Assembly (NCBI GenBank): GCA_041641775.1
Contig: JBEPXR010000005.1
Span: 1-35,015 of the forward strand
Source of the DNA: Desulfobia sp.
GTDB taxonomy: Bacteria > Desulfobacterota > Desulfobulbia > Desulfobulbales > SURF-16
Length of the DNA: 35,015 bases
Direction of reading: 5' to 3'
Shown: positions 6,618 through 14,937 of the stretch, one piece after another
How positions within the stretch are numbered: the stretch's first letter is position 1
How the letters are laid out: the number at the start of each line of letters is the position of its first letter
Notes under the pieces: model-generated
What the model was told of the DNA's origin: nothing
Database searches by the model: none
What the model saw: only the letters and a program-made list of their open reading frames with translations
Position numbers and translations under genes: made by a program

Positions 6618-7508
6618 TCAGCTGTGGCTTTTTCCCGCAGCACTCTTAAAACCGGCCACCAGATCGAGAAGTTCGCTGGTAATCACTGACTGGCGCAACT
6701 GCCGGTAGTCGCCCCGCAATTCTTCGAGATGTTCTTTTATGTTTTTCTCCGCCTGCTGCAGGGACTGCAGACGGCTGGCCTGTTCACTGGCCAGCGACTG
6801 GGCCTGGGCCCTGAAAATGGCGACAAACAGAAACTGCCGGATGAGATTGCTGACCATCCTGTCGGCGTCTTCGGCAAAATATGGTAAACAGCGGCTGGGC
6901 CAGGGACGTTCGGTCAACTCCTGCAATTTCCGGTGGCCGAGGGGGAAGAGGGGAAGATGCCGGGGTTGGGCCGTGCTGCCGGTCTGTTCATGGTAGTTGA
7001 AGAGCAGGTCGATTTTATCCCTTCCCCCACTTTCGCGCCAGGAGGAGATCTCCAGGACTATTTCCATGATGTGGCGGTTTATTCCTTCGATGGAGCCGGG
7101 GGACCAGAAGCTTTTTATGATGTTATAGCCTTCGCTTTGCAGACGGTTTCGGATTCTGGCCCCGGTAACCAGCAGGGAAACCCCCTTCTCAGGGAGGGTT
7201 TCCCCTTTTATCTTCTGGAGAAATTCCACCAGTTTTTCATTGAAACGACCGCAGAGGCCCTGGTCGGAGCCGAAAACAACCAGCAGGTGTCCTCCCTCCT
7301 GTTTTCTCACCTGCTTTCTGGTAGACTCGGCTTCATTGATTACAGCGGAAAGACCTTTCTCAATCGTTTCCAGATAGGTATCCAATGAGCCGGCCGCCTC
7401 TTCATACTGATGGATATTGACCGCAGCCATAGTTTTCATGGTCTTGACAATGGACTGGAGTCCGGTTGCGGTACTGATTTTTTTTTCCAGTTGATGTAAG
7501 TTGGCCAT
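6618..7508 (-). CDS. atpG: N-type F-ATPase gamma subunit
   Basis: The N-terminus is MANLHQLEKKISTATGLQSIVKTMKTMAAV and the C-terminal coiled helix is ITSELLDLVAG. It is the last gene of the atpDCQRBEFAG-ordered operon. Confidence 0.9.
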   Translation of the reverse strand: MANLHQLEKKISTATGLQSIVKTMKTMAAVNIHQYEEAAGSLDTYLETIEKGLSAVINEAESTRKQVRKQEGGHLLVVFGSDQGLCGRFNEKLVEFLQKIKGETLPEKGVSLLVTGARIRNRLQSEGYNIIKSFWSPGSIEGINRHIMEIVLEISSWRESGGRDKIDLLFNYHEQTGSTAQPRHLPLFPLGHRKLQELTERPWPSRCLPYFAEDADRMVSNLIRQFLFVAIFRAQAQSLASEQASRLQSLQQAEKNIKEHLEELRGDYRQLRQSVITSELLDLVAGFKSAAGKSHS

Positions 7509-7521
7509 TTTTGTTGCCGGG

Positions 7522-9060
7522 CTAGTTGTCCTCTTTATTTTCCGTTTCCAGCAGGCCTGCTTCTTCTAAAGCATTGCGGCTGATGTTAATCAGCCTGTCC
7601 TGCCGATCCTCACTCAGTTCCTCGTCACCGGAGATGGATGATCTGATTTCCTCTGCCTGGCTTTCCAGAGCCTTGCGGATTTCGTTCTCGGCCTTGGCCA
7701 TATCATCAAGGTCTATCTCATCAAAAAGACCTCTGTTCAGAATCAGCATGGTAACCACCTGCTCGTAATCTTTTCTGGGATTGTAGCGATGCTGGCGCAG
7801 CAGCTCCCGGAGGCGTTTTCCCCTTTCCAGAGCCTGTCTGGTTTTTTCGTCGAGTCGGGTGGCAAACCGTGAGAAACTTTCCAGTTCCTCGAATTGGGAG
7901 TAGGACAGCTTAAGCTCGCCCACCAGGCCTTTAAACGCGGGCCTCTGCGCCTTGCCGCCCACCCGTGATACCGATCTGCCCACATCTACCGCCGGCAGCA
8001 TGCCTTTGGAAAACAGCTCGGGAGAAAGATAGATCTGGCCATCGGTTATGGAAATGAGGTTCGTGGGTATGTAGGCGGAAAGATTCTGCTCTTCTGTTTC
8101 AATGATCGGCAGGGCGGTGAGAGAGCCGCCGCCCTTGTCATTACGCAGGTGGGTGGAGCGTTCCAGAAGCCGGGAGTGGATATAGAAGATATCACCGGGG
8201 TAAGCTTCTCTGCCCGGAGGATGCTCGAGGAGCAGGGAGAGCTCCCGGTAGGCCCTGGCGTGTCTGGTCAAATCATCATAGACGATCAGAATATCCTTGC
8301 CCTCTTTCATGAAATGTTCCGCGATGGAAGTGGCGGCATAGGGCGTAATAAACTGCAGACCGGGACCTTTTTCACCTCCAGCCACCATAACGATTGTGTA
8401 TTCCATGGCGCCATTTTTCTCAAGCTCATGGATGACTCTGGCCATGGCCGATTCTCTCTGTCCTATGGCGACATAAATGCAGATGACGTCCTTGCCCTTC
8501 TGGTTGGCTATGGTGTCAAGGCCGATTGCGGTTTTGCCGGTCTGGCGGTCTCCCAGGATGAGTTCCCTCTGGCCTTTTCCCACCGGAATAAGGGTGTCAA
8601 TAACCTTGATTCCTGTTTCCAGAGGCGAGGAGACCGGAGCCCGATCCATAATGGCAGGGGCAGTTCTTTCAACTGGCAGGCGTTCGTCGGTATCCAGCGG
8701 CCCCCTGTTATCCAGTATCTCTTCGGTTGCGGTAAAGACTCGTCCAAGTAAACCCGAACCTACGCCTATATCAACGACCCTCCGCAATCTTTTTACTTCC
8801 ATGCCCGCCCGTATGCTGGTGGAATGACCGAGCAGAATCAGTCCGACACTGTCTGCTTTCAACGTCGCCACCATGGCCCGTGTGCCGTCTTCGCACTCCA
8901 CCAGTTCCTCAAAACCTATTGACCCGAGTCCGGCAGCCCAGACAATGGGGCCGGTTACGGAAGTTATATGACCGGTATCCTCCTGTTTTATTCCTGTCTG
9001 GTGCGAAGATATGGCTTTATTGAAAGCCCTTTCCTGATTTTCCCTGGTTTTTTCGAGCAT
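7522..9060 (-). CDS. atpA: N-type F-ATPase alpha subunit
   Basis: Carries Walker A GDRQTGKTAIGLDTI, plus ILIVYDDLTRHARAYRELSLLL and PGREAYPGDIFYIHSRLLER. Confidence 0.95.
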   Translation of the reverse strand: MLEKTRENQERAFNKAISSHQTGIKQEDTGHITSVTGPIVWAAGLGSIGFEELVECEDGTRAMVATLKADSVGLILLGHSTSIRAGMEVKRLRRVVDIGVGSGLLGRVFTATEEILDNRGPLDTDERLPVERTAPAIMDRAPVSSPLETGIKVIDTLIPVGKGQRELILGDRQTGKTAIGLDTIANQKGKDVICIYVAIGQRESAMARVIHELEKNGAMEYTIVMVAGGEKGPGLQFITPYAATSIAEHFMKEGKDILIVYDDLTRHARAYRELSLLLEHPPGREAYPGDIFYIHSRLLERSTHLRNDKGGGSLTALPIIETEEQNLSAYIPTNLISITDGQIYLSPELFSKGMLPAVDVGRSVSRVGGKAQRPAFKGLVGELKLSYSQFEELESFSRFATRLDEKTRQALERGKRLRELLRQHRYNPRKDYEQVVTMLILNRGLFDEIDLDDMAKAENEIRKALESQAEEIRSSISGDEELSEDRQDRLINISRNALEEAGLLETENKEDN

Positions 9061-13272: not shown

Positions 13273-13729
13273 TGTTGAGAAAGTAATGTTTGCAGTATTT
13301 CAACAGGTCCACCAGGGTTATATCCGCCACTATCCTTTCCTGTTCATCAATAACAGGCACTTCCTTGATCTTATCGGTCATCATCATCTCCATAACCTCG
13401 TCGACCTCGTCGTCCAAGTGAACCGAAAGGGGAGGTCCGTCCACCAGATCTCCGGCATTTTCCGCCATGGCCATGCTGGTGAGGTGGAGGTTGTCAACCC
13501 CGTCTTTCCCATGGAAGAAAAGGAGATGGCGGGCCAGTCCTCCCAGAGAGATGACGCCGAGAAGCTTTTCCCGGTCATCGATAACATAGACCAGACGGGA
13601 ATGACTGGCCCGGGAGAAGGCTTCGATAACTTCTTCCGGAACGGTGTCACGATGGACTATCGGTATTTCCCGAGTCTTACTCTGATCGATTACCTCGGAT
13701 ATCGAAGAAGCACATGGTTCAGTCGTCAT
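13265..13729 (-). CDS. stand-alone CBS-pair domain protein
   Basis: Two CBS-like repeats are present ([21 protein letters not shown] and [20 protein letters not shown]). Its stop overlaps the atpD start by 8 nt. Its ATG overlaps the antiporter TGA (ATGA). Confidence 0.8.
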
Positions 13730-14937
13730 TTTTTGATCTCACCTGCCCGGGTTAAGGCGAATTTTGCCCCCAGTGGACCGATAAATTCGAAGATAATGGA
13801 ACTTGCTGAAATAATGGTCAGGACCTGGCTGCCGATCAGTTCGGTCCCTCCCGTAAGCTCGGCCAGCTCCTGTTTTGCCAGGAGGGCGAGACCTATAGCG
13901 ACCCCGGCCTGGGAGAGGATACCGAAGCCGAGATATTTGTTTATCTTTTCATCCATGCCTCCGAGTGTTCCGCCAAGCAAGGCTCCCCCTGTGAGGCCTC
14001 CGGTTCGGCTTACGACATAGATGATTCCCACCATTCCTATGGCCGGCAGGGTGGCAACATCCAGATGGAGTCCGGCCAGTCCGAAAAAAAGGATGAAAAT
14101 GAGCTCCATGATATTCTGGAGCGGCTTGCGAACTTCTTTGACCAGATAGTCTTTATTGGTGTTGACCAGAATAAATCCTGTCATCATGCAGGTGAGAATA
14201 AGGGAAAGATGCCAGCGTTCGGCAAGACCCGTCCCCAGGAAAACGGCCATGAAGATGGCGATAATTATGTCTTGATCACGGTCCAGCCAGTGGATCAGCA
14301 GCGTAAAAAAAGCACCGATGACTCCCCCTAACAGGAGACTGGAAAGTACTTCCTTGAAAGGGTGCCAGAGTGCGCTGATCTGGAAAGCGGGACCGGCTGC
14401 TTCGCCCGGGGTAAGCAGTATCTTGACACTGAAAAGGGTCAAACTGAAGATAATCACCGCTAGCCCGTCATCAAAACCCACCACTGCATAAAGGGTTTTG
14501 GTGAGTTTGCCTTTGGCCCGGTATTCCTGAATGACGGCCACGGTGCCAGCCGGGGCGCTGGCTGGCGCCAGACCGCCGAGGAGAAGGGCGAGAGCCAGAT
14601 TATGACTAACCAGATATACCGCGGCTGCCACGAGGAGAAATGTCATCAGGCATTCAGTTATTATCAGAAATACGATCCCTGAACCAAGCCTTCCCAGGGA
14701 AGAAAGTTTCAGCTCTGAACCAATAATAAAGGCTATAAATCCCAGAGAGAGCGTGGTCACGAAGGAGAGATTGTCTGTCAGCTCTCCTGGAAATAGATCG
14801 AGAAAGCTGGGACCTAGCAGGACACCTGCCGTCAGGTAGCCGATAAGGGCAGGCAGGTTCAGGAGTCGGGCCAGCCTGCCGCAGAAATAGCCGGTAGTAA
14901 TGAGGAGGGCGACAGCGGTTATTGCGGAAAAATTCAT
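13726..14937 (-). CDS. CPA2-family monovalent cation:proton antiporter (Kef/NapA-like membrane domain, no KTN domain)
   Basis: The N-terminus is typical of the Na_H exchanger family: GRLARLLNLPALIGYLTAGVLLGPSFLDL. About 12 TM segments. I prefer ATG 14937 (MNFSAITAV...). The listed ORF extends to 14994 and the start is uncertain. Confidence 0.8.
   Translation of the reverse strand: MNFSAITAVALLITTGYFCGRLARLLNLPALIGYLTAGVLLGPSFLDLFPGELTDNLSFVTTLSLGFIAFIIGSELKLSSLGRLGSGIVFLIITECLMTFLLVAAAVYLVSHNLALALLLGGLAPASAPAGTVAVIQEYRAKGKLTKTLYAVVGFDDGLAVIIFSLTLFSVKILLTPGEAAGPAFQISALWHPFKEVLSSLLLGGVIGAFFTLLIHWLDRDQDIIIAIFMAVFLGTGLAERWHLSLILTCMMTGFILVNTNKDYLVKEVRKPLQNIMELIFILFFGLAGLHLDVATLPAIGMVGIIYVVSRTGGLTGGALLGGTLGGMDEKINKYLGFGILSQAGVAIGLALLAKQELAELTGGTELIGSQVLTIISASSIIFEFIGPLGAKFALTRAGEIKK

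Follow-up and report, generated by a model that had tools for sequence, protein, structure and literature searches.

A conserved N-ATPase operon extension in Desulfobulbaceae-type bacteria: a CPA2-type antiporter gene and a CBS-pair gene upstream of atpD

Introduction

The operon described here lies on the minus strand of a 35,015-nucleotide stretch of DNA from Desulfobia sp. (contig JBEPXR010000005.1 of assembly GCA_041641775.1), which is referred to below as the window. It consists of eleven consecutive genes that run from position 14937 to position 6618. The first two encode a cation:proton antiporter of the CPA2 type and a small protein made of a pair of CBS motifs, and the remaining nine, in the order atpDCQRBEFAG, encode an N-ATPase. 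We consider it probable that this single operon encodes a three-part cation-homeostasis unit composed of a pump, an antiporter and a sensor. Such a unit, devoted to Na+, was proposed in an earlier sequence-only reading of the window, and it is well supported by the synteny reported here; the ion specificity of the antiporter, the direction of transport and the ligand of the CBS protein are given below as predictions. Comparison loci are cited by L numbers, and coordinates after a colon refer to the locus named.

An eleven-gene operon with overlapping junctions

All eleven genes and their order, as given in the sequence-only reading, were recovered in a listing of open reading frames (ORFs), and the Pfam and NCBIfam matches agree with the names assigned to them. 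The antiporter gene (13726-14937) encodes 403 amino acids and matches the Pfam family Na_H_Exchanger (E 1.5e-26, 93.6 bits), and the CBS gene (13265-13729) encodes 154 amino acids that include two CBS motifs recognized by Pfam (E 4e-16). These are followed on the same strand by atpD for the N-ATPase beta subunit (11869-13272; best NCBIfam model alt_F1F0 beta TIGR03305, 714.5 bits), atpC for the epsilon subunit (11483-11872; TIGR03166, 115 bits against a cut-off of 100), atpQ (11136-11432; PF09527, E 2.8e-16; TIGR02230, 96.9 bits) and atpR for the signature subunit of N-ATPases (10867-11139; PF12966, E 1e-19; TIGR03165, 58.8 against a cut-off of 55.5). Next come atpB for the a subunit (10166-10870; TIGR03306, 312 against a cut-off of 302), atpE for a c subunit that carries the Na+ motif (9891-10169; ATP-synt_C), atpF for a long b subunit (9136-9894; ATP-synt_B at residues 8-119 and OSCP at residues 171-243, E 7.7e-8) and atpA for the alpha subunit (7522-9060; best model TIGR03324, 727 bits). 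The last gene of the operon, atpG for the gamma subunit (6618-7508; PF00231 ATP-synt, E 3e-53), is convergent with a TreT gene that ends at position 6610.

The seven junction overlaps listed in the sequence-only reading are all present. Six are ATGA overlaps, read from the sequence at 13726-13729, 11869-11872, 11136-11139, 10867-10870, 10166-10169 and 9891-9894, and the seventh is an 8-nucleotide overlap of the CBS stop codon with the atpD start codon (ATGACTGA, at 13265-13272). A Shine-Dalgarno sequence is present at each of the six ATGA junctions and is missing 5' of atpD (ATTACTTTCTCAACA-ATG, window 13272-13290). The atpD gene of the relative L001 likewise has none. The combination of an atpD gene that lacks its own Shine-Dalgarno sequence with an overlapping CBS gene fits re-initiation of translation from the CBS gene, and we infer that the eleven genes are co-transcribed and translationally coupled. 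A consensus scan of 13200-13800 revealed no promoter-like site on the minus strand, and the only terminator-like stems are weak ones within coding regions (20 were found, against 11.8 +/- 3.4 expected, counting both strands); this outcome weighs neither for nor against internal signals.

Upstream of the antiporter gene, in a divergent intergenic region shared with a TreZ-like gene, a candidate promoter and a conserved 5' block occupy positions 15020 to 15074 of the minus strand. The putative promoter is a sigma-70-like site, TCGCCA-18-TATACT at 15074-15045, identified as a consensus match only, and the 5' block is partly conserved in L001. No Rfam riboswitch or leader RNA was matched at its gathering score in the whole window, and the region 14800-15300 gave matches at chance level only.

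The ATPase genes are of the N-ATPase type

Judged by its genes, the ATPase of the window is a textbook N-ATPase, which agrees with the assignment made earlier. Its gene order, atpD-C-Q-R-B-E-F-A-G, is that of the N-ATPase operon described by Dibrova, Galperin and Mulkidjanian (2010; PMC2881411), and AtpQ and AtpR are both present, with Arg residues carried by the membrane helices of AtpR in the sequences LWRV and LFRV. The NCBIfam ‘alternate F1F0’ models are the best or near-best matches for the beta, alpha, a, b, c and epsilon subunits. Curated cut-offs are passed by a, epsilon, AtpQ and AtpR and narrowly missed by b, c, beta (714 against 752) and alpha (727 against 750). In the c subunit, helix 1 carries E30 and helix 2 carries E63-S64-T65...Y68 (the motif ESTxxY); together these residues form the full set of Na+ ligands and correspond to the helix-1 Glu and ESTxxY of the N-ATPases described by Dibrova et al.

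The earlier statement that the operon has no delta subunit gene holds but needs a known qualification. A separate delta gene is missing from the operon, and the ORF listing and Pfam matches revealed no other OSCP-bearing ORF, but the b subunit, which is 252 amino acids long, ends in an OSCP-like (delta-like) C-terminus. Both the missing delta gene and the long b subunit with its delta-like tail have previously been reported for N-ATPases (PMC2881411). No other ATP synthase genes are present in the 35-kb window. Relative to the published operon, the window adds a CPA2 antiporter gene and a CBS-pair gene 5' of atpD, joined to it through overlapping codons, and its atpD has lost its ribosome-binding site.

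A NapA/NHA2-like antiporter without a KTN domain

The antiporter consists of the membrane domain alone. Pfam detects no KTN/RCK (TrkA_N/RCK) domain in it, as had been pointed out from the sequence. The nearest PDB sequence is that of NapA (4bwz). An AlphaFold2 model of the protein (predicted local distance difference test score, pLDDT, 86) was compared with known structures using Foldseek, and human NHA2 (7b4l) and Thermus NapA (4bwz) took ranks 1-3, with template modelling (TM) scores of 0.74-0.78, whereas KefC was ranked 46th. The ion-binding pair of CPA2 proteins in the fifth transmembrane helix, D156-D157, is invariant across 30 homologues, as is R311, and the Asp-Asp pair aligns with that of NapA. 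CPA1 proteins have Asn-Asp where CPA2 proteins have Asp-Asp in this helix.

The curated CPA2 model TIGR00932 was not passed (47 bits against a cut-off of 238). Kef proteins are characterized by a KTN/RCK domain and gating by glutathione adducts; this domain is absent from the window protein, and the KefB and KefC models of NCBIfam gave 15-23 bits against cut-offs above 750. The failure to pass TIGR00932 and the missing KTN domain place the antiporter in a divergent branch and outside the Kef proteins, and it is therefore called CPA2-like here and not assigned to a named subfamily. On the strength of its motifs and predicted structure, it is a NapA/NHA2-like cation:proton antiporter of the CPA2 type, for which Na+ is the predicted substrate. 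A cytoplasmic ligand-binding module, encoded within the same polypeptide or by an adjacent gene, controls the CPA2 domains of KefC/KefF, KhtT-KhtU and CpaA (see also PMC11150392). The predicted regulator in the window differs from these in being a CBS pair rather than an RCK/KTN domain, and the membrane domain is nearer to NapA/NHA2 than to KefC.

The start codon of the antiporter gene is most likely ATG 14937. A longer version that starts at ATG 14994 was rejected, as this codon falls in a 41-nucleotide insertion in the 5' region (window 14938-14994) that is missing from the nearest relative, L001. By placing an in-frame ATG at 14994, the insertion accounts for the 422-amino-acid gene call in the database, compared with 402-403 amino acids in relatives. 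A search of the plasmid collection gave no close homologue of the window antiporter.

The CBS protein is a predicted partner of the antiporter

The AlphaFold2 model of the CBS protein (pLDDT 83.4) has the fold of a standard Bateman module. Its Foldseek matches include the CBS domain of MgtE with ATP, CBSX2 with AMP and TM0935 (TM scores of 0.6-0.7), as well as the CBS modules of CorC and OpuCA. Within the ribose-binding motif h-h-(T/S)-x-x-D, residues T138 and D141 of the second CBS motif (CBS2) are invariant in 32 sequences, and the first motif (CBS1) is without the Asp. Because T-x-x-D is found in CBS2 only, one adenosine-ligand site is predicted per protomer, and the ligand is expected to be an adenosine-containing molecule such as ATP, ADP, AMP or similar. 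The identity of the cyclic di-AMP-binding protein CbpB was considered for the CBS protein and was not adopted, since the corresponding model gave 17.5 bits against a cut-off of 125. Several CBS-regulated transporters have the CBS-pair fold in common with the window protein, namely MgtE (ATP), the CLC exchangers (ATP/ADP), CorC and OpuA/OpuC (ionic strength, cyclic di-AMP), and the ribose-binding T-x-x-D is kept at one site of the window protein. In contrast to these systems, the CBS pair of the window is a separate polypeptide, and its predicted partner is a CPA2 antiporter.

The sequence-only reading held that the CBS protein might regulate either the antiporter or the ATPase. The evidence collected here favours a protein that serves the antiporter, and the ATPase has become the less favoured option. 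The antiporter and CBS genes form a self-standing module: distant CBS homologues (approximately 40% identity, 141 amino acids) always lie directly 3' of a 407-amino-acid Na_H_Exchanger gene with no ATPase nearby (L005-L011), and the pair occurs likewise without an ATPase in L099, L102 and L105. In a sample of 80 antiporter relatives, a CBS gene is located immediately 3' of the antiporter gene in 12 of the 69 loci that have room for one. In addition, Na_H_Exchanger proteins with a C-terminal fused CBS pair are encoded at L015:5316-7013 (565 amino acids) and L122:9281-11020 (579 amino acids), and these unite the same domains as the window pair. In the L015 fusion, which is the one that was aligned, the CBS pair is joined immediately behind the conserved motif KAGE(I/V), with which the window antiporter terminates. 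The fusions differ from the window pair in being single polypeptides without linkage to an ATPase, and they are 28-32% identical to it in the membrane part. By Rosetta-stone logic, the existence of split and fused versions, together with the stand-alone pairs, points to the CBS protein as a subunit of the antiporter.

Some further observations concern the loci that carry these fusions. A second ORF in L122 (11024-12760), similar in length to the fusion, matched the antiporter profile only. The L015 fusion and both L122 ORFs adjoin unpaired antiporters of family A, the name used here for the CPA2 family of the window antiporter. At L015:7135-7953, a gene of approximately 270 amino acids with a PTS_EIIA_2 domain (Pfam) lies upstream of a CBS-less family-A antiporter, and L121:7040-7852 and L122:7135-7947 are assumed to be its equivalents by size and position only. 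A PTS_EIIA_2-like gene in this place suggests an alternative soluble regulator, and thus that regulators are interchangeable in this KTN-less family.

The layout recurs with different flanking genes

Recurrence of the synteny in other genomes was proposed as a check in the sequence-only reading, and it was found. The arrangement antiporter-CBS-atpDCQRBEFAG occurs in at least four further Desulfobulbaceae-type lineages, with antiporter identities of 57-78%, and three of these have entirely different flanks. The nearest CBS relative (71% identity) was found in other Thermodesulfobacteriota/Desulfobia metagenome-assembled genomes (MAGs), where the same eleven genes are embedded in the same flanks. 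Antiporters of Desulfobulbaceae MAGs that are 57-59% identical to that of the window are encoded in the same gene order, with abutting or overlapping junctions and different neighbours. For example, the operon of L012 is preceded by DnaJ/MerR and followed by an Fe-S/ParA gene, and L014 has co-directional TrkH-TrkA genes upstream (L014:4097-6052). A metagenome scan added L096 and L113, which share the antiporter-CBS-atpD order, and also L150, in which the antiporter-CBS pair sits after atpG and not before atpD.

The overlap of the CBS stop codon with the atpD start codon is kept in all six sequences compared (the window, L001, L012, L014, L096 and L113). Moreover, the antiporter-CBS-atpD operons make up one clade in a neighbour-joining tree of atpD, which indicates that this gene order arose once and was retained while its surroundings changed. 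The database call at L014:9944-10825 is a 293-amino-acid ‘a subunit’ that covers most of the AtpR region in addition to the a subunit; AtpR and a may be fused here, or the start codon may have been called wrongly.

CPA2 genes are linked to N-ATPase operons in many phyla

A wider sample of 80 N-ATPase loci, from 80 species distributed over many phyla, was fetched using a 13-sequence alignment of N-type a subunits. A CPA2 gene is present in or beside the operon in 16 of these loci (20%). The genes belong to two families that are at most 21% identical to each other, and they occupy at least four positions. The survey for CPA2 genes by N-ATPase operons, which had been suggested at the outset, thus uncovered several independent architectures, and CPA2 genes have been repeatedly and independently linked to these operons. 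The antiporter-CBS pair abutting atpD was found in none of the 80 loci.

Between atpQ and atpR, antiporters of family A, which are 33-34% identical to that of the window in a multiple alignment, are encoded in L030 Thiohalocapsa, L036 Woeseiaceae, L042 Thiohalobacter and L032 Granulosicoccaceae (partial). The same position is occupied by antiporters of family B, which have NapA-like motifs, in L016 Nitrospirota, L022 Salinivenus, L029 Syntrophobacterales, L047 Cytophagia, L051 Sumerlaeota (truncated), L081 Burkholderiaceae and the cyanobacteria L043, L067, L069 and L080. A family-B gene lies directly upstream of atpD in L089 Aminicenantes. Finally, L037 Desulfobacteraceae has a family-A antiporter gene and a CBS gene, then divergent TrkA/TrkH genes (L037:3698-6024), and then atpD. 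Operons with family B are scattered in the atpD tree among antiporter-less operons, and this distribution points to several gains or losses. Two of the in-operon family-B genes are broken: the Sumerlaeota MAG encodes 204 amino acids (L051:9076-9690), and the gene of Rivularia is divided into two ORFs (L080:8400-9663). These may reflect decay or assembly errors.

Apart from these cases, the gene that precedes atpD differs from locus to locus. A general conserved upstream neighbour of N-ATPase operons was considered and is unsupported, given that no Pfam family is present in more than 4 of 57 loci. A general link between pump and antiporter is also favoured by an antiporter-centred metagenome sample, in which an N-ATPase adjoins 3 of 6 CBS-paired antiporter loci and 0 of 44 unpaired ones (hand-calculated hypergeometric p ~0.001). 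The Na+ motif ESTxxY occurs in all 20 antiporter- or CBS-linked operons that were scored (the window included) and in 54 of the 60 unlinked ones. It was rejected as a marker of antiporter linkage, as 74 of the 80 scored c subunits are of the Na+ type and therefore provide no contrast. Outside the 16 loci, an unrelated CBS pair precedes atpD in the MAG of L049 Phycisphaera, where no CPA2 gene accompanies it; the CBS gene (L049:6728-7297) encodes 189 amino acids of another CBS family and is located 127 bp from atpD.

The antiporter and CBS genes had been described as going beyond the published account of N-ATPases, and neither is mentioned by Dibrova et al. (2010), who record only a ‘single gene insertion’ in the Acaryochloris operon and leave its content unnamed (PMC2881411). 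In A. marina pREB4 (L176, NC_009929.1 126034-127263), RefSeq annotates a ‘cation:proton antiporter’ between AtpQ and AtpR, with overlaps of 8 and 4 nucleotides, which identifies the inserted gene as a CPA2 antiporter. This operon was found separately in the plasmid collection and is a further case beyond the 16 of 80. As in the window, a CPA2 gene with the Asp-Asp motif is integrated through overlapping codons into the operon of a Na+-type N-ATPase, and similar operons are those of L016, L029, L047, L069, L081 and others. The pREB4 antiporter differs from that of the window in belonging to the other CPA2 family (at most 21% identical), in its location between atpQ and atpR, and in having no CBS partner.

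The link between pump and antiporter is not mentioned in the ProAD database paper, the survey by Koumandou and Kossida or the paper on the B. pseudomallei c-ring, nor in genome papers on Thiohalobacter, Nitrospira and Futiania. In the full-text literature that we searched, we found no description of N-ATPase operons that contain or adjoin a CPA2 or CBS gene, of the version with CPA2 and CBS genes upstream, or of a CBS pair as a trans-encoded regulator of a CPA2 protein. As far as we found, the link is visible in public annotation yet undiscussed.

A proposed three-part unit and its alternatives

In the unit that we consider probable, the Na+-type N-ATPase would hydrolyse ATP and drive Na+ out of the cell. 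The NapA/NHA2-like Na+(K+)/H+ exchanger would swap cytoplasmic Na+ for H+, or perform the reverse reaction, and in doing so would use or reshape the gradients of the pump. The soluble CBS pair is predicted to dock on the antiporter at its C-terminal, cytoplasmic face and to gate it in response to an adenosine-containing ligand, such that the exchanger would be active only in cells that can also supply the pump with energy. Furthermore, with the CBS gene tightly coupled to atpD, both machines would be made in linked amounts. Two directions of transport can be envisaged: both transporters might expel Na+, or the exchanger might turn the Na+ gradient of the pump into H+ movement.

Several points weigh against this proposal. 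No antiporter is linked to 64 of the 80 N-ATPase operons sampled, and the in-operon antiporters lack a CBS gene, which implies that neither partner is obligatory. The atpD neighbour-joining tree carries no bootstrap support values. Databases label the antiporter family ‘Kef-type K+ transport system membrane component’, and Trk K+ genes are among the neighbours; the substrate of the antiporter, be it Na+ or K+, and its stoichiometry cannot be read from sequence alone. The Phycisphaera operon, with its CBS pair and no antiporter, is one hint of a direct link between CBS proteins and the ATPase. Lastly, N-ATPase transcripts of Synechococcus PCC 7002 are not raised at high salinity (PMC3468840), and a simple role in salt extrusion is therefore not established for N-ATPases generally.

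The Phycisphaera hint leaves some room for an alternative in which the CBS protein mainly regulates the N-ATPase, for instance as a nucleotide-sensing brake on ATP hydrolysis, or serves both machines, the antiporter being a co-expressed neighbour. This alternative, which we regard as unlikely, would make sense of the overlap between CBS stop codon and atpD start codon, seen in every lineage, and of an atpD without its own Shine-Dalgarno sequence. It would also agree with the antiporter-centred metagenome sample in which, within family A, only CBS-paired antiporters adjoin N-ATPases (3 of 6 loci, against 0 of 44 unpaired ones). However, the same CBS family accompanies an antiporter with no ATPase in at least ten loci and is also fused to antiporters, whereas among the 80 N-ATPase loci this CBS family never occurs in the absence of the antiporter, the Phycisphaera gene matching its profile only at E 1e-4. 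In L150, moreover, the pair follows atpG, and the CBS gene is thus away from atpD.

The other alternatives concern the antiporter itself and the meaning of its location. That it is a Kef- or KhtU-like K+/H+ exchanger, and that the unit couples Na+ expulsion to K+/H+ balance (Na+/K+ exchange and turgor control) instead of providing two routes for Na+, seems doubtful in view of the Na+/H+ exchangers at the top of the structural ranking, the lack of a KTN domain and the Na+ type of all linked pumps. Nevertheless, the family name used by databases, the weak NCBIfam matches to KefB and KefC, and the TrkH/TrkA K+ uptake genes that adjoin the module in L014 and L037 all lean towards such an exchanger. 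A far less probable explanation is a lineage-specific accident of gene order, by which two unrelated transport systems became tightly packed with no functional coupling. An accident could leave the exact antiporter-CBS-atpD order in one atpD clade only and in 0 of the 80 loci of the genome sample, but it would hardly be expected to preserve the layout through a complete change of flanks, or to keep the overlapping stop and start codons. CPA2 genes of two distant families have also been recruited, in many phyla, to other positions of N-ATPase operons, while other neighbours are not recurrent. On these comparative data, the accident explanation is already largely refuted.

Genomic surroundings of the operon

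The operon is located within a trehalose locus, with synthesis and turnover genes for this sugar on either side of it, at window positions 548-6610 and 15076-16917, both on the plus strand. The first of these segments encodes a 1332-amino-acid HAD phosphatase/trehalose-phosphatase/GH65 phosphorylase fusion, followed by DUF5752 and TreT, and the second is the TreZ-like gene, with CBM48 and alpha-amylase domains. The trehalose flanks are the same in L001, and a GH65 gene is also present just upstream of the N-ATPase operon of Thiohalocapsa L030. TrkH/TrkA genes adjoin the antiporter-CBS-N-ATPase unit in two lineages, co-directionally in L014 and divergently in L037. Trehalose and Trk neighbours fit an osmotic or ionic stress setting.

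Two other genes of the window are unrelated to the operon. One (31554-33092, plus strand) encodes a 512-amino-acid protein in which an HhH-GPD DNA glycosylase domain is fused to an Exo_endo_phos (AP endonuclease-like) domain, and the other (28260-29459, plus strand) encodes a flavodiiron-type protein with ODP and flavodoxin domains.

Implications for N-ATPase function

The arrangement described here is a conserved addition to the known N-ATPase system, and to a specialist this combination of genes would make sense more than it would surprise. What N-ATPases do for the cell has not been settled since 2010; they are assumed to extrude Na+, but some of these enzymes are H+-specific, and that of one cyanobacterium is not salt-induced. 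The presence of a CPA2 exchanger in or on approximately one-fifth of the sampled N-ATPase operons, together with a CBS gene that is chained to atpD in one lineage, leads to a testable model of pump, exchanger and energy sensor. Recurrent linkage in multiple architectures, along with the CBS regulator, thereby offers a handle on the question of N-ATPase function. In addition, a trans-encoded CBS pair seems to serve as the regulator of CPA2 antiporters that lack a KTN domain, a role possibly filled by a PTS-EIIA-like protein in other members of the family.

A bolder and decidedly speculative idea is that N-ATPases are commonly one half of a two-transporter ion circuit, in which the pump expels Na+ and a dedicated CPA2 exchanger trades Na+ against H+, and that the CBS protein of Desulfobulbaceae is a nucleotide sensor which both transporters share and which links them physically. 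If this were true, the exchanger and the pump would be switched together in these bacteria. The net output of the circuit would be ATP-driven control of pH or membrane potential rather than simple salt extrusion, which would redefine the physiological role of N-ATPases.

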